NCBI GenBank assembly: GCA_963765715.1
Contig: CAVXXN010000004.1
Location: 342,373-406,372, forward strand
Source of the DNA: Terriglobia bacterium
GTDB taxonomy: Bacteria > Acidobacteriota > Terriglobia > Terriglobales > Acidobacteriaceae
Length of the DNA stretch: 64,000 bases
Direction of reading: 5' to 3'
Shown here: in pieces, positions 2,532 to 61,004 of the stretch
Layout of the letters: each line of letters opens with the position of its first letter
How positions within the stretch are numbered: position 1 is the first letter of the stretch
The notes under the pieces: model-generated
Seen by the model: the letters and a program-made list of their open reading frames with translations, nothing else
Told to the model about the DNA's origin: nothing
The model's database searches: none
Made by a program: the position numbers and the translations under genes

Positions 2532-3532
2532 TTACGCGGCCACCTTACCCGCACCCCGAGCCTTGTGCGGTGCGCCCACATAGGGGAATTCCGCGAGCAG
2601 GTCTTTGTGTGGTCCAACCTTGTCGTCGGTCACCTTTCCGTTCGTGAGGATAGGAAGGAAGAAATTACGACATCGTCGGTGAGTGCCCGGCCATTGTTCG
2701 GGAACACCGCCGGCCGCGTGGAATCATACTTGGAGGACGTCCGGCAGCAGAGTCCCGGCGGCGCGGGTTGCTTCTGCCGGCGTATATCCACCGGTATGCT
2801 CCAGCGCATGCGCGAAGACGGGGACGAACTGGGCATCGTCCTTCGGCTCCGCACCAAGGTAGGCGGCGTTCGCCTCGCCCGCAAGAAAGGGCGTTTGTTG
2901 TGGACGCGCACCGCGATCCGCCTGAACCCATTTCCCGCTCGAGCCGTCCAGGGTGCGAACCCATATGCCGATCTTTTTAGTACCGAAGGCAGAGTTGGGC
3001 ACTTCCAGCACGATGCTGCACACGTCCGCGTCGACGAAGCCATCCTCCCCGGTAAATTGCAGGTTGTTCAGGGCGCCACCTACGTCGAAGAAAAAGGGAT
3101 CGCTGCGCCAGCCGGCGAAGAAGCGGTGATCACCAGCCTCTGTTACCCGTGTCTCCTTCCCAGTCGAGACCGGCACGCCCTCAATCATCACCTGCCCGTC
3201 GTCACCTGTTCCAGCGGCCGCCGCGCCCTCAACCCGGCGAAGCGTCGCCGTCTGACGTCCCGTCCTTAGCGGAGGTGAATCGCACCCGGTATGCGATATC
3301 TGCGACGTTATCGCCGTTCGTATCGATCTTGAGTTCATAAATCGCGTCAGGCGAAAAGGCGTCAGCGCTGGTGGGTCCCGGCGGGTTGGCGCCGACGCGA
3401 CGGATGAAAGTTCATAATCAGGATCGTCTTGCTGGCATCCCCAGGCTTCGGGAAAGCGTAGAGATCGGTAAAGTCCAGGCGGGCGTCCCCGTGGGGAAAC
3501 CCAAATTCGGGGCCGGAGTAATGATGGGACAT
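2532..3532 (-). pseudogene. DUF4331 family protein, multiply frameshifted
   Basis: N-terminus MSHHYSGPEFGFPHGDARLDFTDLYAF, preceded by ggagaag. Continues through at least 4 frame changes: AIYELKIDTNGDNVADIAYRV, then FFAGWRSDPFFFD...LLPDVL, then FPNNGRALTDDVV, then ILTNGKVTDDKVGPHKDLLAEFPYVGAPH, with the stop at 2532-2534. Confidence 0.75.
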
Positions 3533-3605
3533 GGCTTCTCCTCTGTGGTTTCTAGGTGAGATTGAGTTTACAAACAGAATTTCAGCAGGATGTCTGACTC
3601 GAAAA

Positions 3606-4010
3606 TTATACGCCCGGCGCCGCACCTTCGCACTTGCGGAGACTCACCTGGCGGCCGTTTAGCCGATAGCGATAGTCCGTGTTAAACAATACAACCTGGC
3701 TGGCATCCATGTCGGTTGGCTCATCCACGATGATCTCGATCCACAAAGCAGCATAGTCTTCAACCGCAATGCCCATTCCTTCTTCCCGGCAAGTCAACAA
3801 ACGGGAGACTGTCGCGCGAATCTTCTTGGCAGGGGCGTCTTCGTAGAACAGTTCAATTCGATCACTAGGTTGGAGATCTTGCATTTCTACCTCCGCATTC
3901 CCCAAGGCAATCCCGTTATAAACGACTTGGATGTGCAGCCGCAAGATCAACCAGACGGATTGCCGCAAAAAAGGCAGTAACAGGTCGAGTCGGGTGCCAT
4001 TCAAAGCCAC
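3606..4010 (-). CDS. hypothetical protein
   Basis: 134-aa ORF directly downstream of 4014-4418 on the same strand. No recognised domain, and the start is uncertain. Confidence 0.4.
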   Translation of the reverse strand: MALNGTRLDLLLPFLRQSVWLILRLHIQVVYNGIALGNAEVEMQDLQPSDRIELFYEDAPAKKIRATVSRLLTCREEGMGIAVEDYAALWIEIIVDEPTDMDASQVVLFNTDYRYRLNGRQVSLRKCEGAAPGV

Positions 4011-4013
4011 CCC

Positions 4014-4418
4014 TTATTCAGGTTTCTTTTCGATTGACGGAGCGGCAGGCGCGCCCCCCACGCCATGGCCCTTCATCATGCCGGGCTGCATCGAGTCCAT
4101 GTTCTTTTGCAATCTGTCCATGTGGGCAATTACCGTCTCCCACAAATCCACATTGTCTCGCCAGCGTGAGAACTCGTTCGTATCCTTGATCGTGAAAAGG
4201 TTAGCCTTCATCTGAGCCAGCGACGACTTCATCTTCTCGATGTCGGCCCTCATGGCTTCCATCTCTTGTCTATGCATCTCCATCATTTTTTGACGTTGTT
4301 CGGCCCGCATCTGGTTTCCAGCGCCAGCGCCCGGAGATGCTTGTGCGGGTTTATCCTGCCCGAACATCGCAGGCGCCAGACCAATCATCAGGACGAGTAG
4401 GAAATCTCGAATCTTCAT
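4014..4418 (-). CDS. secreted hypothetical protein (coiled, Met/Gln/Lys-rich)
   Basis: N-terminal signal-like MKIRDFLLVLMIGLAPAMFGQ, followed by a charged helical M/E/K-rich body. Confidence 0.6.
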   Translation of the reverse strand: MKIRDFLLVLMIGLAPAMFGQDKPAQASPGAGAGNQMRAEQRQKMMEMHRQEMEAMRADIEKMKSSLAQMKANLFTIKDTNEFSRWRDNVDLWETVIAHMDRLQKNMDSMQPGMMKGHGVGGAPAAPSIEKKPE

Positions 4419-4648
4419 TGCAACTCCCTTTCCAGAGACATCGAATCCAATGAGTATAGGGCGGGTGAACGGACCGGCGGCGGGTGCCCCATCCTTTCAC
4501 GTACTTTGTGAAAGGGTGGGAAAGGGAATCGCCCCCAGCCTAGCTGCTCCGCCACGACCCACGTAGGGGCAGAACCTGTCCTGAGCGAAGTCGAAGGATG
4601 TCCCCATCTGCCCAGCCGAGCAAAGCTCGGCAAAACAAGCCATCTACG

Positions 4649-4687
4649 CACTGTCATCCCGAGCGAAGTCGAGGGACCTTGTGCTTT
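4649..4687 (+). repeat. REP-A interspersed repeat
   Basis: cactgtcatcccgagcgaagtcgagggaccttgtgcttt. A degenerate relative, cctgtcctgagcgaagtcgaaggatg, lies near 4575-4598. Confidence 0.85.
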
Positions 4688-4704
4688 CTCTTCCGGCCCG
4701 AGAC

Positions 4705-5035
4705 GGGTGGCCCATTCAAAGCCTGCCCTGAGCCTGTCGAAGGGCCCGCCTTTGGCTTGATGGGGCAGTTCATATTTCCCAACTTTGTCATCCCGACCGG
4801 AACAGATCATCGCGAATGCGATGATCTGCGGAGTGGAGGGATCTGCTGTTGTTTGTGAGCGACGGTGAAGGTCGACGGCGGTGGTAACAGCAGAATGTGA
4901 CGAAATGACTCTGCCCGCTGTGGTGAAAACGTGTCAGTCCCCATGGCATGAGGGCAATCTAGTTTGTTCTCGGGTCCAAGTCTGTGACTGTGAACATCCC
5001 CACTCAAGCCAAAACCGGGCTTGAGTGGGCCACCC
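4705..5035 (+). mobile_element. MITE-like element, copy 1 (331 bp, terminal inverted repeats)
   Basis: Starts gggtggcccattcaaagcc and ends ggcttgagtgggccaccc. Aligns along its length with 5719-6021. Carries an internal REP-A variant containing the palindrome gatcatcgcgaatgcgatgatc. Confidence 0.75.
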
Positions 5036-5063
5036 ACCGAAAGGTCTTTCGGGTTGATGTAGC

Positions 5064-5712
5064 ATGAGATCCAGAATGGAAATTCGAACCTATGCACGTG
5101 TTAGACCCTATCTATATCATCTGACCGATTGGTCAAACGTTGACCATATTATCCAGACGAATGAGCTTCTGTCGGCAGCGACTTGGATTGAACATGCTGC
5201 GCGTGAAGACTTGTTAACAATACGACGCCCTGTAGATGAACGACTAACTGTAAGCGATACTGTAATTCTCATTCGCGACCAAGCGCCTCTACATAGAGGA
5301 AACCTGTCGTTGCCGACTGGCTATACATTCGAGCAGTTCATCGAGAGCCTAAATCGAAGAATCTTTTTTTGGCCAGGCACTGATGCGGGTCCCATCATTA
5401 TGGTGTCCGCCACTTCGAGCGATATCGGTCGGAGCATCCTGCAATTTTAAAAATCGATTTTCAATCCTTAATTAATTCAAATCCTGCCGTCGAGCCGCGT
5501 TATTGCCGGTACAACTCAGGCTCCCCGCGATGTTCACATGGACAGAAGAGCCCCGTGGCCCAAAGACATTCCAGTCTGGAGATCAATTCGTCGGGACACC
5601 CAGTGCCGCTGTTGAGGTGACGTTCAGCGGCCCGCTTATACTGCCAGCAAATGTGAGAATCGGCAGGCTCCCTTCAGGTCCGTGGCGCCACCTCAACTCT
5701 CGCCTAAAGTAG
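5064..5712 (+). pseudogene. DUF7002-like protein, frameshifted (at least two -1 events)
   Basis: Frame 0 reads RPYLYHLTDWSNV...LIRDQAPL...LNRRIFFWPG. After about 5398 it reads YGVRHFERYRSEHPAILKIDFQSL...RYNSGSPR. After about 5555 it reads PRGPKTFQSGDQF...AVEVTF. About 40 percent GC in hand-counted stretches. Confidence 0.55.
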
Positions 5713-5718
5713 AACGGT

Positions 5719-6021
5719 GGGTGGCCCATTCAAGCCCTCTTTTGGATTGAGTGGGAGTCCATATTCCCCAACTCTGTCATCCCGACCGGAACAGATCGTC
5801 GCGAACGCCATGATCTGTGGAGTGGAGGGACCTGCTGTTGTGAGCGAGAGTGAAGGTCGACGGCGGTGATAACAGCAGAATGTGACGGAATGACTCTGCC
5901 CGCTGTGGCGAAAACACATCAGTCCCCATGGCGTGAGGACAATCTGGTTTGTTCGTCGGTCCGAGTCTGTGACGTGTGAACATCCCCACTCAAGCCAAAA
6001 CCGGGCTTGAATGGGCCACCC
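5719..6021 (+). mobile_element. MITE-like element, copy 2 (303 bp, perfect 18-nt terminal inverted repeats)
   Basis: Starts gggtggcccattcaagcc and ends ggcttgaatgggccaccc. Same orientation and internal blocks as copy 1. Confidence 0.75.
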
Positions 6022-6050
6022 GTGCATGAAAGAATTAACCTAGGATTTGA

Positions 6051-7478
6051 ATGAGTAGCGGCAAGAAAAAAATAGAGAGAATAGGAGATTGCACTTGGAA
6101 GCTTGGGCGCAATGACCCGTGCAGTTGTGGAAGCGGCCTAAAGTTCAAAAAATGTTGCTGGCCCGAAAATAATAAGTCCCGCCGATCCCCGAGTAATGTC
6201 GTCGAAAGATGGAAAAGCCTGGAAGGAAGCCCCACCAGAATTGCGCGAGAAGGCAATTCATGTGTTTGAAGAAAAAGGAGCGCAAGGAGCAGGAACGCGT
6301 CTGCACATTTTGGTCAAATAAGGCCGCAGTATTCAATGGTGCATCAAGGCCACCGAATGGTCACGGTGCGCAACAGAATCTACTATTCGGACAAATGGAA
6401 GTTCTTTCCCGATTTTCTCCGTGACTACGTGCCGCAGGTTCTTGGCCTTGAATGGTGCAAAGCAGAAGCAGCGAAGCCAGAAGCAGAGCGCCATCCAATC
6501 ATTACTTGGCGCGCGCAAGGAGTAGCGTACATCAACAATCAGCCAGCTCAACCTGATGGGAGCCGGGTGGCGCTGCCCTGTGGTGCATTGGCAGCATATA
6601 GTTGCTTCGCGTACGACCTTTACGTCGTCGCCGACAACGGCGGGCTTGATGACGAATTCCTACAACGGCTGAAGAATCGGGAACTGTTTCAGGGTGCACG
6701 CCATGAACTCTTCGCTGAAGCGACTTGCTATCGGGCGGGGTTCACAGTGCAACACGAAAACGAGAAAGATGGGAGCGCCCGCCACGCAGAATTTACCGTA
6801 AGGCACGCACCAACGGGCCAGCTTCTATCGGTCGAAGCGAAAAGTAGGCATCGCGCTGGTGTACTAGCGATGCAGGGTACGCCAGAAGATAGGCCGCAGT
6901 TACGGCTCACGCCCCTAATCAATGACGCAGTGGCGAAAAACCCAAACCACCCTCTCGTGATCTTTGTGGACGTTAATCTGCCGTTCAAATTGGCGGAAAG
7001 GGTGTTAGGGCGGCAGGCGGGAAACACAATATCTCGCCCCCTGCAGATCATGCTAGACAGAATTAAGAAGCAGCACAATGACGTGGATCCCTATTGCATG
7101 ATTATTTTCAGCAATCATCCGCATCACTACGCGGTTCGTGATTTAGACCCACAGCAGCATCTACTTTCCGTGGTGTCGCAAAAGCCAAGTGCGCACAAGC
7201 TTTCCTTGCGGAGCCTTTTCTTGGCTGCCGGATTGTACGGCAACATTCCGATGGGCTTTTCGTTGGACGAGGGCGACCCGCCGCCGCCCGCCGTGCCCGT
7301 TGTTTGGCCCAAGGTCCGTTATGACTTTCAAATGACCGAAACAGATGTTAGCGTGTTGCGTGAAGGGATGGCGGTACCCAAGAAATTTTTGACCACCGAC
7401 AAAGACCGTGCACAAGCACCCAGCGCGCTGCACGAGTTTTGGAAGATATTGGGTTATCACGTGCGGATGCTCACATGA
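6051..7478 (+). pseudogene. SEC-C motif protein with PD-(D/E)xK-like core, N-terminal region disrupted
   Basis: [20 protein letters not shown] metal-binding motif at the N-terminus. The reading appears to pass through frames 0, 1 ([20 protein letters not shown]), 2 (ERKEQERV) and back to 0 (GQIRPQYSMVHQGHRMVTVRNRIYYSDKW), followed by an intact 380 aa. Possible nuclease motif HAEFTV...LLSVEAKSR. Confidence 0.55.
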
Positions 7479-7597
7479 TTTGTGAGGCTATCGAAGAAGG
7501 CAAGTCTATATCCGCTGTTTACGCTACGAAGTAGCACAAGGGAATAAAAGATGACGCGGGTGGCCCGAGTGAAGCCTGGTCTTGGCTTGAGTGTGGC

Positions 7598-7720
7598 CGT
7601 TCCCCCGCTCCAATGTCCTGTCAAGCCCCCAAACCCACCCAATTCCCCCTAACTCCTTCTCCCCAAACACGCCATAGTTAGTACATCCATGTCCCATTCC
7701 CCCCACCCATCCTGCTATCC
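7598..7720. other. C-rich, G-poor tract (G-run rich on the minus strand)
   Basis: Hand count over 7601-7720 gives about 59 C and 9 G. The minus strand carries many GGG to GGGGGG runs. Confidence 0.7.
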
Positions 7721-7740
7721 TTAAAATAGAAGACCAAAGA

Positions 7741-7768
7741 AGGCGCAGCCCAAAAGCTGCGCCTTTTG
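7741..7768 (+). terminator. rho-independent terminator-like hairpin
   Basis: aggcgcagc-ccaaaa-gctgcgcct followed by tttt. Confidence 0.5.
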
Positions 7769-7820
7769 TATTAGGAGCACGGATATAGACAAATCAGGCC
7801 ACTCGAAATCAGGTTAAGTA

Positions 7821-8327
7821 ATGGATAAACCCAAAGCGCGCCCCCTTCCGCGACGTCCCGCCACTAACCAGCGCCATGCTCTGCCTCCCAAGCGCCGCGG
7901 AGAGATCGCGGAACTTGCGTTCATGCAGAAAGCCGTCAGCCTGGGCTTCGGCGTCGCCAAACCCTGGGGAGACAGCGACCGCTACGACTACATCCTCGAC
8001 GCCGGACGCCGCTTCTGGCGCGTGCAGGTCCGCTCCACCGCCTACGAAAGCCATCGCGGATACGCCGTCCATACCTACGTCTACGTGAAGCGCAAAATGG
8101 TCGCCCTCACCGCCGACGACATCGATTGCATCATCGCCTACATCGTCCCGCTCAATCTCTGGTACGTGCTCCCGGTCGAGTCTTTTTCGCCCTGCAAAAA
8201 TCTGTGGTTCTATCCCCACGGCAGCAAAAAAGGTTCCCGCTTCGAAACTTTCCGCGAAGCCTGGTGGCTCCTCGACCCCGAACTCAAAGAAATCCGGGAC
8301 GAGCCGTCCCAACCAAAGCCTGTGTAG
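7821..8327 (+). CDS. PD-(D/E)XK endonuclease (group I intron-associated endonuclease-like family)
   Basis: RRGEIAELAFMQKAVSLGFGVAKPWGDSDRYDYILD...FWRVQVRS matches the GE.AE......G..V..P.GD...YD.I.D....RVQVK pattern of that family (from memory). Confidence 0.65.
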   Translation: MDKPKARPLPRRPATNQRHALPPKRRGEIAELAFMQKAVSLGFGVAKPWGDSDRYDYILDAGRRFWRVQVRSTAYESHRGYAVHTYVYVKRKMVALTADDIDCIIAYIVPLNLWYVLPVESFSPCKNLWFYPHGSKKGSRFETFREAWWLLDPELKEIRDEPSQPKPV

Positions 8328-8500
8328 GGACGGGTCTCTGACCCGTCCAGGCCGAGCGAAAAGCTCGACAAGCCTTTGCTGTTGGATTCTTCCAGACCAA
8401 GCCCTCAGCCGAGCTTCGCTCGCCCCGACCGGGTCGCTTCGACTTCGCTCAAGGCAGGCTCCGATCCCAGTCCCACACAGTTCGTGTCACCACAAAAAGC

Positions 8501-8530
8501 AAAAGCCCCGCGCTTCCGCGCAGGGCTTTT
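8501..8530 (-). terminator. groEL terminator hairpin
   Basis: On the minus strand: aaaagccctgcgcg-gaag-cgcggggctttt followed by a T-rich run, 40 nt past the groEL stop. Confidence 0.6.
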
Positions 8531-8569
8531 GATCTAGATGAAAGCTGAGAGCTGATAGCTGACAGCTTC

Positions 8570-10252
<1,683 letters not shown>

Positions 10253-10327: not shown

Positions 10328-10654
10328 TTAGCGGCGCGATCCGGCGAGTTCTTTCTTGGTTGCGCCGGTCAAAACTCCGAGGACTTCTTCTTCGCGCATG
10401 ATGATGAAATCTTCACCATCCAGCTTGATTTCGGTACCGGAATACTTGCCGAACAGTATGCGATCGCCCTCTTTTACGGCCAAGGGGAACACCTTGCCCT
10501 CATCGTTGCTCTTGCCTTTGCCGGCGGAGATGACTTCTCCCTCCTGAGGCTTTTCTTTGGCGCTGTCGGGGATAATGATGCCACCACGGGTGGTCTCGCC
10601 TTCTTCAATACGGCGGACTAGAATGCGGTCGTGTAGCGGGGTGAACTTAGCCAT
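10328..10654 (-). CDS. groES: co-chaperonin GroES
   Basis: [40 protein letters not shown]. Lies immediately upstream of groEL. Confidence 0.97.
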
Positions 10655-10723
10655 ACGTGCAGACTCCTTTCGTTCGTTTTTATGGTTTGGCCTGGATAGG
10701 TTCCAGGATCAAGTTTGGGGTTG

Positions 10724-10779: not shown

Positions 10780-10941
10780 ATGAGGATTCCGTAAATTCCA
10801 TCTATCATATTGATTATAAGCATGATATCAAGTTTTGGCCAGGCGAGAACACTTGTTTGCTTTTGGGTGAGCTTGCCTTCAGGCGATCAGAGTTGCAAGG
10901 GTAGGACGCTCGCGGCTACATTGTTGGGTCGGGATCTGGTT

Positions 10942-11385
10942 ATGAAAAAAGCTGTTCTAAGCCTTGTTATCGCGGTTCTTCTCGCCTCAGGGGTGGCCTT
11001 CGCCCAGGACGACGATACCTCCATGCTTAACTTCCAGGTTATCCGGGATTACAACGGGAAGCCGATTCGCAATGCGAGCGTGGTCATGCATCCAGTCCAG
11101 AAAAATGGCAAGCAAGCTAAGGGCGGCCTCCAAATCAAGACCGATGCGGATGGCAAGGCAAGCTTTGATGGCGCGCCTTATGGGAAGTTGCGGGTGCAGG
11201 TCCTGGCTCAGGGTTTCCAGACTTTCGGCGCGGACTATGACGTCGACAAGCCCACGATCGAAATTACTGTGAAAATGAAGCGGCCCGCCGGGCAATATTC
11301 CATCTACGAAGATCATCCTGGCGACAAGAAGGACGACCAGGGAGCGTCTCCGGCAGCGCCGGATTCGACTCCAAAACCGCAGTAG
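10942..11385 (+). CDS. secreted carboxypeptidase-regulatory-like domain protein
   Basis: Signal peptide MKKAVLSLVIAVLLASGVAFAQ. Body DYNGKPIRNASVVM...KTDADGKASF...GKLRVQVLAQGF resembles the CarboxypepD_reg fold pattern. Confidence 0.6.
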   Translation: MKKAVLSLVIAVLLASGVAFAQDDDTSMLNFQVIRDYNGKPIRNASVVMHPVQKNGKQAKGGLQIKTDADGKASFDGAPYGKLRVQVLAQGFQTFGADYDVDKPTIEITVKMKRPAGQYSIYEDHPGDKKDDQGASPAAPDSTPKPQ

Positions 11386-11910: not shown

Positions 11911-11951
11911 AAAGGCCCCACTTCTCGCAAAGTACGCGAGAAATGGGGCAC
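11911..11951. terminator. REP-C hairpin, likely bidirectional terminator
   Basis: aaaggccccacttctcgc-aaagta-gcgagaaatggggcac between convergent genes. Same termini as the 16895-16944 element. Confidence 0.55.
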
Positions 11952-11987
11952 CCATCTTCACTAATGCCTTCCCCGGACCGTGCGATG

Positions 11988-16894: not shown

Positions 16895-16944
16895 AAAGGC
16901 CCCACTCTAGACTCTCCAAAAACAGAGAGACTAGAATGGGGCAC
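16895..16944. terminator. REP-C hairpin downstream of the DUF885 gene
   Basis: ccccactctagactctc-caaaaaca-gagagactagaatgggg gives a 15 of 17 paired stem, flanked by aaagg and cac as in 11911-11951. Confidence 0.55.
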
Positions 16945-16998
16945 TCTCGCACCGCAAACGTAAGGTCCAATATCCTTCAGTGATATTCTTTTTGCCGT

Positions 16999-40221: not shown

Positions 40222-40364
40222 TGCGTACGAAACTCCTTGCATTGCAGCTGTGATTATCGTACTCTCGCGTATGTAATACTTCAAGACAGATAAACACAGG
40301 AGACAACATGGATAGGTTCAAAGGAAAAACAGCACGACCTTCACCCTTCACCACGGAGACGCCC

Positions 40365-41340
40365 ATGGAACATTCGATCGCGCTCGTCACCGGCACCACC
40401 TCCGGGCTCGGTTATGCGGCAGCCCGCCTGCTCGCCACAGAGGGCTGGCGCGAGATCATCGTCACCGGGCGCAGCCTGGCCCGGGTCCAGGAAACGGCCG
40501 CTCAACTCGCGGCTGAGACCAAAACACAGGTCTTCACGCCGCTGGAGCTGGATCTGAACGCGCCGGCCAGCGTTCAATCCGCCCTCGCCGAGCTGGTCAA
40601 GCGAGGTCGGCCGATCGATTTCCTGCTGCTCAATGCCGGGATTGGTCCCAAGCAAGAAGCGCGTGATCACTGCGGCGGGCGTCGAGGCGTCTCAGGCCCC
40701 GCTGATCGGCCATCATCAACTGACTGTCGGGTTGCTTCGCGCCAACCTGCTGAGCCCCAACGCGCGGATTGTTATCGCCGGCGCGGAGCCTGCCCGCGGG
40801 GGCGTACCCATGTTCAAGTACACCGACGTGCCAGCCTTCGCGGCCAAATACCACCGGGGTGACCGAACCGCCGCTGTGGAAGCCCTGATTCGCAACGGGC
40901 CGAACGTGAAGTACGTGCCCAACAATGCGTATGCCGACGCGAAGCTCATCATCGCTTGGTGGGCCGCGGCGCTGGCGCGCCGGCTACCCTCCGGCATGGC
41001 CGTGTACGCTGTCTCGCCCGGTGGGGCGACCGACACCAAGGTGGTGCGAAACGCTGGCCCGTTGTTGAAGTATCTGTTTATCCCAATCGTGAACCTCATT
41101 CCCGGCATGAATCAGACGCCGGAGACCGCGGCCCGTCGGTACCTCCAGGCGTCGGAGTTCGGAACCGACGTCTCAGGGCAATTCTTCGCCTCGGCTCAAG
41201 GGAAGTTCTCGGGCCCAATTGAGGCGCAGCGCCACCCACACCTCCACGATCGCGCCAGCCAGGAAGCCGCGTGGCAGGCCGTCGTCAAGGTCTCCGGCGT
41301 CGACTTGTCTCACCCAGCATCCTTGACCGCGGTGTCCTGA
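40365..41340 (+). CDS. SDR family oxidoreductase, one +1 frame disruption near 40650
   Basis: IALVTGTTSGLGYAAA and LLLNAGI. The second frame carries NNAYADAK (YxxxK). Divergent from the TetR gene. Confidence 0.8.
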
Positions 41341-56751: not shown

Positions 56752-56808
56752 ACAAAAGCAGGTCCCTCCACTTCGCTTGCTTCGCTGCGCTCCGGTCGGC
56801 ATGACAGT
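56752..56808 (-). repeat. REP-A long variant (as found inside the MITE-like elements)
   Basis: The reverse complement reads aactgtcatgccgaccggagcgcagcgaagcaagcgaagtggagggacctgcttttgt. Confidence 0.75.
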
Positions 56809-56833
56809 TAATCTGGTACCGCTTGTCTAATCT

Positions 56834-58227: not shown

Positions 58228-58338
58228 TGACTAATCCCCTGTGCTGCAAGAGTCCCATCTGTCCGGGCAGAAGCGTGATGTATTCTATTCTACAAAGTTA
58301 TTGATTTGCGTTGGATGCATCGGCAAGAGAGGGAACGC

Positions 58339-59336
58339 ATGAAGTTCGGGATCACGATCAAGCCGGATCTTTCTGTGGAGCGCATTGTTTCTTTGACGCG
58401 CCAGGCTGAACAGGCGGGTTTCGAATACGGCTGGATCTTCGATTCCCACGTACTGTGGAAAGAACCTTACCCGTTGCTCGCCTTGATGGCGAATGCAACG
58501 CGCAACATGAGGCTTGGGACGTGCGTAACGAATCCGGCGGTGCGCGATCCGACAGTTACCGCCAGTCTGTTCGCTACCCTCAACCTTATTTCGGGCGGGC
58601 GCATGCAACTAGGTATCGGACGCGGAGACAGTTCGCGACGAGTTCTCGGGAAAAAGCCCGTAAGCCCGGCTGAACTGGAACGTGCGGTTGCCACATTTCG
58701 CGAACTGACATCAGGGCAGGAGGTTCAATATGAAGGTCAAGCGACGCGACTTTCATGGGCAAAGTCCGCCGCCGGTGTGGATCGCAGGATACGGACCGAA
58801 GGTCCTGAATATGGCGGGGCGGGTCGCGGACGGTGTGATTTTGCAGTTCGCTGATCCCGATCTGATTGCGTGGTGTCTTGGATTTGTGTGGCAGGGCGCG
58901 AAGGAAGCTGGCCGCGATCCCAAATCGATCGAGATCATGGCGGCAGCTCCGGTGTGGGTATCGGACGACCTTGAGGTGGCACGGCAACGGGTGCGATGGT
59001 TTCCGGCGCTGGTTTCAAATCACGTCGTGGACCTGATATCGCGATATAAGCCCGAAGACCTTCCGGCGTCGCTCACCTCTTACGTGCAGAAGCGGGCCGG
59101 GTATGACTACCTGCATCACGCCGAGGTGGGAAGTGACAATGCCAGCTTTGTTTCCGATGAAGTGGTGGACCGGTTCTGCCTGGTAGGTCCGGCGGAAGCA
59201 CATCGTCAGAAGCTGAGGAAACTGGCAGAAGTGGGAGTGACCCAGTTCAATATTTATCTGATGTGCGGGGAGGAAGAGCAAACTTTGGAGATTTACGAGC
59301 GGGAAGTGTGCCGGGGTTCGCGGGCTTCAGGCGTGA
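58339..59336 (+). CDS. LLM-class (luciferase-like) flavin/F420-dependent oxidoreductase, frame disruptions near 58740 and possibly 59308
   Basis: MKFGITIKPD, GFEYGWIFDSHVLW, LGTCVTNP, GGRMQLGIGRGDS, then VWIAGYGPKVLNMAGRVADGVILQFADP. The 3-prime end is uncertain. Confidence 0.7.
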
Positions 59337-59390
59337 CAGTTTTCGGTCTTCAGTTTCTTGGGCCGGTTGCAGTGTTCCTTCGGGTAACAT

Positions 59391-61004
59391 GTGTGCGAGC
59401 ACACTTTGGATTCGCAAGACGCGAAGATCGAAATCCGTTCCGGTAATTTCCTGCCTGCGTGGTTGCGATTTCTCGTTCCTTCCGTTGCCGACCTGATCTT
59501 CATCGTTCTGCTTGCTGCCATGACGGGCGGGACTGTTAGCTCCGCGCTTGCTGGGCGATGCCGGCATCGGATGGCACATCCGCAATGGCGATCTGATGCT
59601 CCGCACCCATGCGATCACGCGGACCGATCCTTTCTCGGCCACGATGAGCGGGCAGGCCTGGTATGCCTGGGAATGGTTCTACGACATCGTGATCGCGGGC
59701 GTCCATCAATGGTTTGGCCTCAACGGAGTGGTCCTTTCTCACTGCCGTGATTATTGCCGCGACTTTTGCGTTGACTCTGCGGTTAAGCCTGCGGCGCGGC
59801 GCGGACTTGCCTGTGGCGTGGTTCTGCTGGCATTGTCGCTGGGCGCGTCCATGATTCATTTGTTTGCGCGCCCTCATGTTCTGAGCTGGTTGTTAACCGT
59901 CATCTGGTTCCATATCCTGGATGGCTCGCAGAATGCGAGCGCGTGCGGGGCCGGCGGTTGTGGTGGTTCCCGCTGTTGATGTTGCTTTGGGTCAATGTGC
60001 ATGGCGGTTTCGTCGTGGGCTTCGTTCTGCTGCCTTTACCTGCTGAGCAATGGAATCGAATATTCAACGTGCAAAGAGCAAGACGCGCGTGCGCAACTCG
60101 CCGGGCGGTTACGGCAATTGGGAACGGTGACGGTGGTTTCGCTGGTGGCGAGCCTGCTGAACCCTTACGGCTACAAGCTGCATGTTCATGTTTACCGCTA
60201 TCTTTCCAGCCGCTGGCTGATGAACCACATCGATGAATTTCTTTCGCCTAATTTTCATGGCGTGGCGCAGCAGTGCTTTGTTTTGCTTCTGTTGATCACG
60301 ATTGTGGCATTGGCGGGCGGGAAGAAGCCGCCGCTTGCGCATGTGCTGGTACTGCTCTTTGCCGCGTATAGCGGTTTGTATGCTTCCCGCAATCTTCCGG
60401 GATCGTCGCTTCTGCTCACGCTGCTGATCGCGCCCTTGCTTTCGCAAACTGTAAGGCGAGGCTATGCCAACTCCGAATCTCTCATCGGCGGTGCGTGCAT
60501 TTTTGGAAAGATGGAAAGGTTTCGGCGATCCGCATGACAGCGATGGAATTGAATCTGCGGGGACATGTGTGGCCGCTGATCGCGGTGATTGCCGGTCTCC
60601 TGATTTGCATGCAGGGAGGAAGGCTGGGTTCCTATCGATGGATGGATGCGCACTTCGATGCCAATAAGTTTCCGGTGCTGGCAAGCGACCTTATTGTCCA
60701 GCGCGACATTCGCGATCCAATTTTTGCTCCTGACCTGTGGGGCGGATACCTCATTTACCGGCTCTCCCCACAGACAAAAGTATTCGTCGATGACCGTCAC
60801 GATTTCTATGGAGAAGATTTTTTTAAAGGCTACTTGAAGACACTGCGTCTCGCGCCCGATTGGAAGGTATTTCTCGATGACCGGAGAGTAAATTGGGCAT
60901 TGCTGCCGTCGGGATCTTCATTGGCCAATATGCTGGAAGAAACGTCAAGGTGGAACATCGTCTATCGGGACAAGACGGCAGTCTTGTTTGAGCGGAAGCT
61001 CTAG
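59391..61004 (+). pseudogene. large polytopic membrane protein split over at least six frame changes
   Basis: Pieces include DLIFIVLLAAMTGG, LLGDAGIGWHIRNGDLML, FLTAVIIAATFALTL, LWWFPLLMLLWVNVHGGFVVGF, LLNPYGYKLHVHVYRYL and FVDDRHDFYGEDFFKGYL. Confidence 0.6.

Follow-up and report, generated by a model that had tools for sequence, protein, structure and literature searches.

A 64-kb stretch of DNA from a Terriglobia bacterium (GenBank assembly GCA_963765715.1, contig CAVXXN010000004.1, positions 342,373 to 406,372), the whole of which is called the window here, carries two related repeat units, E1 (copy 1, 4705-5035) and E2 (copy 2, 5719-6021), that bracket a single gene of the DUF7002 family. 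With a probability of roughly three in four, we consider E1 and E2 to be two decayed, non-autonomous copies of an element composed of repetitive extragenic palindromes (REPs) and a REP-associated tyrosine transposase (RAYT), a REPtron or 'TIRtron', lying in an old and inherited hypervariable region. In such copies the transposase past codon ~26 would have been lost and an unrelated short hairpin repeat, SR, would stand in its place, while the hairpins at the unit ends would be recognised as single-stranded DNA (ssDNA) by a RAYT supplied in trans, by analogy with TnpA-REP of E. coli. E1, E2, the DarT-like DUF7002 gene and a third, degenerate hairpin, E3, would then constitute a vertically inherited, hypervariable accessory region upstream of PDDEXK_5-groESL, in which the repeats mark the boundaries where accessory or defence-type genes are swapped among relatives, probably by promoting exchange through recombination.

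Units E1 and E2 and the REP/RAYT element

An earlier note on this DNA had described E1 and E2 as two copies of a MITE-like element (miniature inverted-repeat transposable element), and its observation on the repeats was largely borne out. The two direct copies are real (88-90% identical), and the shared blocks quoted in the note are present in both. By BLASTN, E1 and E2 aligned in direct orientation with 88% identity over 293 nt (E ~1e-103), differing by a 24-nt indel in the loop of the left hairpin, a 4-nt indel and a 1-nt indel, and by MAFFT they were 90% identical when only the shared columns were counted. Hairpins of 37-45 nt stand at both ends of each unit in mutually inverted orientation. 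The 18-nt inverted termini, said to be perfect in copy 2, were recovered as such: E2 has the 18-mer GGGTGGCCCATTCAAGCC and its complement without any mismatch at its two ends, E1 departs from them by 2 mismatches on the left and 1 on the right, and the four matches to this 18-mer in the window, against a chance expectation of 0.08, fall on the four ends of E1 and E2 as inverted pairs. The ends are therefore inverted, as the term terminal inverted repeat (TIR) implies, but they are not a plain inverted repeat, each end forming a stem-loop of its own, of 12 bp and with the tail GGGTGG. Likewise, the 4-nt indel was confirmed, but the minus strand, which the note had taken to be not coding, holds a relic of coding sequence. 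Comparison of the flanks revealed no target-site duplications, which the note had proposed to define, around E1, E2 or the whole E1-gene-E2 block; E1 is flanked by GAGAC on the left and ACCGA on the right, E2 by ACGGT and GTGCA, and neither pair is a direct repeat. The MITE likeness can thus be kept as far as it means non-autonomous derivatives of a mobile element, but not in the sense of a DDE-type MITE, given the lack of target-site duplications. The guanine-plus-cytosine (GC) content of both units is 56%, and that of the window is 56.2%. The repeat features are as follows.

4705-5035, minus strand: unit E1, read as an internally deleted REP/RAYT unit and a direct repeat of 5719-6021; composed of a hairpin, the SR hairpin repeat, a RAYT N-terminal relic, the 5′ leader and a hairpin; residues 1-45 of the proteins P0012/P0013 match 4949-4812 by tblastn.
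4705-4765, plus strand: left hairpin of E1, with an enlarged loop in which ~24 nt of CCTGAGCCTGTCGAAGGG type are nested; covariance model 12.8 bits.
4786-4850, plus strand: SR module in E1, in which a variant form of the short intergenic repeat CTGTCATCCCGA...GGGACCTGCTGTT encloses an inner hairpin of 11 bp.
4869-4949, minus strand: RAYT relic in E1, the first ~27 codons of a Y1/HUH transposase, MPWGLTRFHHSGQSHFVTFCCYHRRRP.
4995-5039, minus strand: right hairpin of E1, corresponding to the 5′-side hairpin of the RAYT unit; covariance model 65.6 bits.
5719-6021, minus strand: unit E2, read as a second internally deleted REP/RAYT unit, with a deletion junction identical to that of E1; residues 1-33 of P0012 match 5934-5833 by tblastn.
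5715-5759, plus strand: left hairpin of E2; covariance model 54.8 bits, ssDNA fold -7.4 kcal/mol.
5981-6025, minus strand: right hairpin of E2; covariance model 66.1 bits.
7554-7599, plus strand: E3, a degenerate hairpin at the right boundary of the variable cassette; covariance model 24.5 bits.

The low score of the left hairpin of E1 is due to its enlarged loop, a variant that is also present in L014, L122 and L152. The predicted ssDNA folds of the E1 and E2 hairpins range from -7.4 to -14.4 kcal/mol, the latter value belonging to the right hairpin of E1 (z = -5.4), whose GGGTGG tail points towards the DUF7002 gene, and the SR module at 4786-4850 folds with -15.7 kcal/mol (z = -3.9). E3 is the short relative of the terminal hairpin that had been noted near 7547-7597, and this observation was confirmed.

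The identity of the units emerged from the 107-aa open reading frame (ORF) on the minus strand of E2, which in a search of a large protein collection led to proteins with the Y1_Tnp domain (PF01797), among them P0012 and P0013 as full-length proteins of 183 aa. These two proteins start with (V/M)P(W/R)(G/R)L..(Y/F)(H/Q)HSGQSHF(V/I)TFCCYHRRP, which is the peptide encoded by the minus strand of E1 at 4949-4869 and of E2 at 5934-5854, and their C-terminus, PHSSQ(Q/N)(K/R)A, is the hairpin translated. The NCBIfam model NF047646, 'REP-associated tyrosine transposase' (cut-off 80 bits), gave 109-112 bits for P0012/P0013, 113.9 bits for the protein of L116 and 116.1 bits for that of L074, and the IS200/IS605 model NF033573 gave the RAYT proteins 30.7-37.6 bits, under its cut-off of 55 bits. 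The closest solved structure is TnpA-REP of E. coli (4ER8, E = 2e-13), in an alignment that spans the HUH motif (HVH) and the YIHRNPV tyrosine region. When the minus-strand ORFs of the units themselves were scanned against Pfam and NCBIfam, nothing was matched because the relics are too short, and the Y1 transposase link was obtained solely from the large protein search.

The intact unit, of ~626 nt, can be read in L116 (751-1376), L074 (6050-6676) and L014. It runs from a GGGTGG-hairpin over ~25 nt to an ATG, 183 codons and a stop inside an inverted second hairpin, so that the 3′ hairpin encodes the final residues (PHSSQNRA) together with the stop codon; in each hairpin, the GGGTGG tail is joined to a stem of 12 bp (CCCAYTCAAGCC/GGCTTGAGTGGG) that closes a ~7-nt loop. 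Autonomous-type full-length RAYT genes, that is, the kind of autonomous partner which the earlier note had proposed to look for, hence exist in relatives. In both E1 and E2 the RAYT homology ends at the same point, past codon ~26, and a variant of SR is found there instead; in E2 the RAYT start codon is moreover mutated from ATG to ACG. Judged by sequence comparison, E1 and E2 are REP/RAYT units that lie on the minus strand and have lost internal sequence, the window copies themselves being mere relics, and because they share the deletion junction they appear to descend from one deleted ancestor.

Insertions within this element family were observed at several places. Family hairpins are inserted within RAYT genes in either orientation at a near-constant site just past the ...HLL(L/V)SEP codons (L014 3596-3660; L122 9229-9273; proteins P0002, P0004, P0006 and P0009), and the transposase gene itself may here contain a hot spot for insertions; P0004, like P0001, P0008 and P0011, comes from a soil read catalogue (SRR accessions) rather than from the source genome. 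An E-type unit in L152 (1-451) has the same ~65-nt insertion in its two terminal hairpins, in mirror image, which suggests that the two unit ends were homogenised against each other. In L122, another repeat (CCCGGACAAGGGTAGAGCAGCGCTTCAGCGCTGCATAAAAA...) is repeatedly inserted at the RAYT N-terminal relic (9467-9604, 10640-10700 and 10850-10990), and each insertion duplicates ~20 nt of the relic.

The locus in related contigs and the DUF7002 gene

Two metagenome contigs syntenic with the window, L121 and L122, were reached through the closest DUF7002 proteins. The genes at the locus and the corresponding segments are listed below.

5064-5712, plus strand: DUF7002 gene, with a predicted DarT-like ADP-ribosyltransferase fold (Pfam PF22531).
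7821-8327, plus strand: PDDEXK_5, a PD-(D/E)XK endonuclease gene and the conserved right anchor (Pfam PF11645).
8570-10237, minus strand: groEL, next after PDDEXK_5.
Window 2536-4443 to L121 6792-8662, 86% identity: left anchor.
Window 5021-6023 to L121 9715-10719, 89%: end of E1, DUF7002 and all of E2.
Window 4909-5914 to L122 9605-10639, 81%: end of E1, DUF7002 and most of E2.
Window 7598-8294 to L121 12280-12976, 94%: PDDEXK_5.
Window 7610-8288 to L122 12291-12966, 92%: PDDEXK_5.
Window 8496-10238 to L121 14309-16053, 92%: groEL.

E1-DUF7002-E2 thus occupies one locus in the three contigs with a divergence close to that of the neighbouring core genes, and is therefore old and inherited. The alignments indicate that the block predates the split from the L121 and L122 lineages and is not a recent composite transposon, and it was found at the syntenic locus only.

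These comparisons bear directly on the proposal of the earlier note, in which two non-autonomous elements captured a foreign low-GC gene to form a composite, cassette-like transposon and E1-gene-E2 moves as a unit. The direct orientation of E1 and E2, the perfect 17-nt inverted repeat formed by the outermost ends (4703-4719 and 6007-6023), a GC content of DUF7002 ~6 points under that of the window and the patchy distribution of DUF7002 as an accessory gene in varied contexts are all in line with such a capture. The proposal is nevertheless highly improbable. The comparison with relatives, which the note itself had suggested, placed the same block at the same position in L121 and L122 with 81-89% identity and at no other location; neither the units nor the whole block have target-site duplications; and the GC dip amounts to only ~6 points. 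Moreover, DUF7002 genes of ~60% identity in L123 and L155 are found without hairpins, and in the P0023 contig DUF7002 directly precedes PDDEXK_5, which suggests that the gene has long been part of this neighbourhood. Finally, Y1/HUH enzymes work on single-strand hairpin ends and not on inverted repeats of the insertion sequence (IS) type.

The claim that a single gene fills the space between the units was upheld in its spacing, with a start 28 nt after E1 and a stop 6 nt before E2, but not in its intact reading frame, since the gene lies in three frames as assembled. The Pfam model PF22531 scored 65 bits for ORF 5064-5450, the first half of DUF7002, and 93.7 bits for the stitched translation. 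A tblastn comparison with P0014, an intact protein of 216 aa and 73% identity, gave three collinear frames (5076-5396, 5384-5554 and 5545-5700), implying two 1-nt deletions in the assembled gene, near 5391-5400 and 5549-5553. Other genes in the window are split as well, namely a luciferase-like monooxygenase gene (58306-59446), an SDR gene (40308-41340) and the SEC-C gene described below; the monooxygenase gene consists of two overlapping ORFs covering model positions 3-155 and 162-314 in Pfam, and the SDR ORF covers the first half of its model, which suggests assembly indel errors or scattered pseudogenes. GroEL is also split in L121, and the DUF7002 frameshifts of L121 and L122 lie at a different position, around aa 60-67. 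The DUF7002 frameshifts may accordingly be assembly indels rather than the mark of a real pseudogene, and a firm pseudogene reading was rejected in view of the split monooxygenase, SDR and SEC-C genes and the split GroEL of L121. The GC content, which the note had put at about 40 percent, was measured as 49.8% for the gene against 56.2% for the window, with 60-nt stretches ranging from 30% to 65%.

An AlphaFold2 model of the DUF7002 protein, built with 34 homologues, reached a predicted local distance difference test score (pLDDT) of 90.4. An invariant glutamate lies at E181 in P0014. In a Foldseek search with this model the top seven matches were all DarT (best 7yk3_C, probability 0.99, E = 6.7e-4, with template-modelling (TM) scores of only 0.37-0.45), followed by cholera toxin A1 and Tpt1/KptA. 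DarT is a DNA ADP-ribosyltransferase toxin whose partner antitoxin is the DarG macrodomain; no DarG was found near DUF7002. The PADLOC DarT model matched DUF7002 weakly (E = 0.006 over 33 residues), the DUF7002 profile found no sequence match among the solved structures of the PDB except a spurious one to PCNA, and no mention of DUF7002 was found in the literature. The predicted structure points to a DarT-like protein of the ADP-ribosyltransferase fold, possibly a toxin or defence effector. A MazE/AbrB-type antitoxin-like gene was observed upstream of DUF7002 in two contigs, L123 (4512-5642) and a second contig of the Joint Genome Institute (JGI), which hints at a toxin-antitoxin pairing of DarT-like DUF7002.

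On the right side of the locus, PDDEXK_5 matched the PADLOC HEase ('homing endonuclease') model with 54.5 bits, and a metagenome scan with PDDEXK_5 yielded 31 further related loci. Many of these contigs stop just upstream of the gene, which is expected where repeats disrupt the assembly of short reads, and in the contigs that reach further, different genes are again set apart by hairpins or E-type units. The groEL-syntenic genome locus L077 was uninformative for the region, as synteny stops just past groEL. A separate observation concerns a glyoxalase-family gene at 1406-2206 of the window, whose closest counterpart (78-83% nucleotide identity) lies between PDDEXK_5 and groEL elsewhere, namely in L121, L122, L128, L129, L133 and L148; this relocation indicates rearrangement around the hot spot.

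Spread of the hairpin family

The family of the terminal hairpins was searched with the query GGGTGGCCCAYTCAAGCC in one genome per species, and the matches listed comprise at least 120 stretches, nearly all from metagenome-assembled genomes (MAGs) of Acidobacteriaceae/Terriglobia, plus the complete genome CP085323. Among the 120 loci listed, 202 hairpins were counted, with a single hairpin in 67 loci, and the pairs with tails pointing outwards fall into three sizes, 98-121 nt, 155-540 nt and 625-632 nt, which correspond to doublets like REPINs (REP doublets forming hairpins), to deletion derivatives like E1 and E2 and to full units, respectively. Beside the hairpins, the RAYT sequences detected by tblastn were full-length in a few cases and N- or C-terminal fragments in many. 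The covariance model of the hairpin had 179 matches in 100 loci, and in 144 distinct copies 98.4% of the stem cells are paired; changes on both sides occur in 7 of the 12 stem pairs (0.3 in shuffles), at a low level of variation that results from the selection of the seeds by sequence.

The hairpin joined to the SR module recurs in L077, L036, L058, L104 and L046, and in L077, L058 and L104 it is joined to a C-terminal rather than an N-terminal RAYT relic, in derivatives of ~260 nt in all, so the family has given rise to several different deletion derivatives. Several RAYT fragments per locus were found in L087 and L122, and together with the three remnants at the window locus they argue for more than one past copy of RAYT.

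A purely local origin, in which one RAYT remnant was copied in place or homogenised by gene conversion and the deleted form did not transpose, must be weighed against this dispersal. It would account for the single junction shared by E1 and E2, for their closer resemblance to each other than to their L121 counterparts, for the absence of any other copy in the window and for the failure to find the identical architecture at unrelated loci. A tandem event would, however, have copied the gene too, and nothing after E2 resembles DUF7002, so that tandem duplication of unit plus gene was rejected; in addition, the hairpin family overall is clearly dispersed, and the other deletion derivatives recur in different genomes (L077, L058 and L104). 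We therefore regard a purely local origin as quite unlikely.

Several of the same observations do weigh against the preferred reading of E1 and E2 as decayed REP/RAYT copies. Their exact architecture was seen only at the orthologous locus (L121, L122 and L152) and not at unrelated loci, so that mobilisation of this particular deleted form is at most putative, and within the 64-kb window the covariance model confines the hairpin family to 4.7-7.6 kb. Where the window has E1, the contig L122 carries a RAYT gene of nearly full length (aa 7-183), broken by a hairpin insertion and another repeat, in spite of the junction shared by E1 and E2, which calls for conversion or replacement. The identity of 90% between E1 and E2 exceeds that of E1 and E2 to their positional counterparts in L121 (88% and 83%), which suggests that gene conversion between the copies, or a later re-duplication, is needed. 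The role of the repeats in recombination, lastly, derives solely from the positions where homology breaks.

Other short repeats accompany the family in the window. Solo copies of SR (CTGTCATCCCGAGCGAAGTCGAGGGACCTTGCTGTT) are found at 825-848, 921-944, 2412-2435 and 4653-4676, four matches against 0 expected, and the longer-loop variant of SR lies inside E1, inside E2 and at 56752-56810 on the minus strand; an Rfam scan of the window returned only one tRNA and no match for SR. A third short repeat family (GGCCTGCCGAGCTTTGCTCGGCCTGGACGGGTCGGAGACCCGTCCCCACAC-like) was observed at 8312-8378, 2221-2267 and 4615-4632 and is common to L077, L064 and L121. Hairpins at 4478-4524, 11913-11957 and 16897-16950 keep the base GGGTG(C/G)CCCA...TGGGG and differ in their upper stems, and may belong to sister REP families within one superfamily.

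The variable segment, its cargo and comparison with known systems

Between E2 and E3, the window segment 6024-7553 has no counterpart in L121 and L122, which carry other, mutually unrelated genes there, and the segment is unrelated among the window, L121, L122, L124, L152 and L142/L130. At 6023, 2 nt beyond the right-hand hairpin tail of E2, the homology to L121 breaks off, to resume just after the hairpin 7554-7599, and the homology to L124 breaks off at that position too. In L121 (12176-12220) and L122 (12177-12222), the hairpin orthologous to E3 is followed by a RAYT C-terminal relic detected by tblastn. The contents of the segment are listed below; DUF6680 is also among them in relatives.

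Window 6051-7534, plus strand: SEC-C-motif protein gene (Pfam SEC-C), the variable cassette, split into ORFs 6051-6269 and 6336-7478.
L124: a DUF5677 gene.
L152: a 437-nt segment.
L142: a 1.2-kb segment, a PEGA-domain gene and a Ppl-like PHP+ATPase pair (PADLOC 70 bits).
L130: the Ppl-like PHP+ATPase pair only.
L140: PD-T7-4-like/DUF4145 and GIY-YIG genes.

From these alignments, the region upstream of PDDEXK_5-groESL is read as a hypervariable hot spot for accessory or defence-type genes, and a link of this cassette hot spot with the hairpins is possible.

The SEC-C gene, whose intact homologues (P0134-P0160) have 445-493 aa with the motif N-terminal, offers the closest view of such a link. 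The segment is missing at this place in L121, L122, L124, L142 and L152, and the gene recurs in L156, where window 6005-7534 aligns with 5953-7473 at 82% nucleotide identity; L156 has otherwise no homology to the window, and its SEC-C locus adjoins the pst operon. In L156 the terminal half of the hairpin known from the window stands in front of the SEC-C gene, the two hairpin junctions lie within ~4 nt of the same point and the leader (CATGAAAGAAT) is common to both. To the left of the gene, the minus strand of L156 carries a RAYT relic (aa 115-176), and after the stop codon a hairpin, GGCTGGCCCGC in L156, is found in both contigs. From this junction it follows that a RAYT unit and the SEC-C gene stand together in two contexts. 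The looser idea of a cassette, as distinct from the composite transposon, thereby gains some support from the hypervariable locus and from the SEC-C/hairpin link in L156.

A stronger version of this idea would have serial RAYT-plus-cargo modules, each with a minus-strand RAYT between two hairpins, followed by one plus-strand cargo gene and then by the next hairpin. The Y1 transposase would mobilise DNA between two same-strand hairpins, as in IS200/IS605 passengers, and insert it beside an existing hairpin. Three such modules, E1-DUF7002, E2-SEC-C and E3-PDDEXK_5, would stand in a row in the same orientation; the first gene past the tail of a minus-strand hairpin is a plus-strand gene in three instances in the window and likewise in L121, L122, L124 and L142; the E2-E3 segment differs in every relative examined, with breakpoints at hairpin tails; SEC-C, RAYT remnant and hairpin half are joined alike in L156; and the order DUF7002 then PDDEXK_5 in the P0023 contig fits E2-SEC-C as an insert. 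However, SEC-C is the sole cargo gene that has its hairpin in a second context, and its copy in L157 lies inside an integrase island without hairpins. When 14 cassette proteins were compared by tblastn with the 120 hairpin loci listed, only PDDEXK_5 homologues were found, in 3 loci (L013, L063 and L081, 0.6-1.5 kb from family hairpins), the other cargo genes occurring in none, which lends no support to a general association of hairpins with cargo. The full-length RAYT units of L074 and L116 lie between housekeeping genes without cargo; genes surrounded by hairpins with tails pointing inwards are a trivial outcome if RAYT units just insert between genes; and the Ppl-like cassette of L142 misfits, in that its left side has a RAYT relic in plus orientation and its right side lacks a hairpin. 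A scan of 4400-8400 for promoters and terminators showed no excess over shuffled sequence and none that would explain expression of the cargo. We thus judge serial modules rather unlikely, and it is equally doubtful that the locus is an integron-like RAYT-cargo array, driven by REP/RAYT and not by an integrase, in which the 5′ hairpin of each RAYT unit would link it to one divergently oriented accessory, toxin or defence gene, with E2-SEC-C as the first example.

The preferred reading, inherited relics of REP/RAYT units in a hypervariable region, has consequences beyond this locus. A widespread and little-described REP/RAYT family of Terriglobia leaves 'MITE-like' units made of gene relics, which a sequence-only reading easily mistakes for TIR transposons, and its units break short-read assemblies, many metagenome contigs ending at the hairpins. 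The uncharacterised family DUF7002 gains a predicted DarT-like ADP-ribosyltransferase fold. There is continuing debate on the function of RAYTs and on how REP-type repeats shape genomes. At this locus, single genes of accessory or defence type that vary among close relatives are set apart from one another by RAYT remnants, and one gene travels with a hairpin. The locus is therefore a concrete test case for whether REP/RAYT mediates the exchange of cassettes or merely marks recombination hot spots, and its hypervariable array with boundaries at RAYT remnants, together with the SEC-C gene linked to a hairpin in two contexts, is worth follow-up.

Among known systems, the IS200/IS605 family, with its non-autonomous derivatives (palindrome-associated transposable elements), relies on a Y1 HUH transposase that recognises subterminal hairpins as ssDNA; its elements produce no target-site duplications, give rise to deletion derivatives and can carry passenger genes. 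The units described here share the Y1 HUH transposase, the hairpins, the lack of target-site duplications and the deletion derivatives, but differ in that the end hairpins of IS200/IS605 are direct, on the same strand, whereas the ends here are inverted, and in the score of the protein, which stays at 30.7-37.6 bits against the cut-off of 55. DDE-type MITEs resemble the units in being short and non-coding, with inverted termini, and in deriving from an autonomous element by internal deletion; in E1 and E2, by contrast, there is no target-site duplication, the termini are stem-loops and the parent enzyme would be an HUH tyrosine enzyme rather than a DDE one. With integron arrays and defence hot spots the locus has in common that single accessory, toxin or defence genes are set apart by hairpin repeats and that the content varies among close relatives beside a conserved anchor, but unlike an integron it has no integrase and no attC-type site, and the separators are remnants of a transposase gene.

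The closest likeness is to the REP/RAYT systems and REPINs already described (PMC3116915, PMC5581495). As in these, a Y1/HUH gene is enclosed by two palindromic repeats in inverted orientation, each with a conserved 5′ tail (L116, L074 and L014), the hairpin is dispersed across the clade as singletons and short inverted doublets, and the protein passes NF047646 with TnpA-REP (4ER8) as its best solved relative. Differences are that the tail is GGGTGG and not GTAG, that the 3′ hairpin overlaps the stop codon, that copies per genome are modest among the matches listed, and that many partly deleted gene copies occur, with at least three remnants at one locus, whereas classical RAYTs are typically single-copy (PMC5581495). 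In Acidobacteria, sharply defined RAYT-like 'TIRYT' genes flanked by inverted repeats, 'TIRtrons', have been described in Terriglobus, Koribacter, Acidobacterium and Granulicella, some of the repeats being self-complementary and some forming families (Di Nocera et al. 2013, PMC3733652). The present units resemble these acidobacterial RAYT-like genes with flanking inverted repeats, a likeness of description rather than of aligned sequence, and the passages describing TIRtrons do not include 300-nt deleted derivatives or a variable-array setting (PMC3733652). The units are thus a further member of the described REP/RAYT kind, of TIRtron type, and not MITEs with TIRs and target-site duplications.

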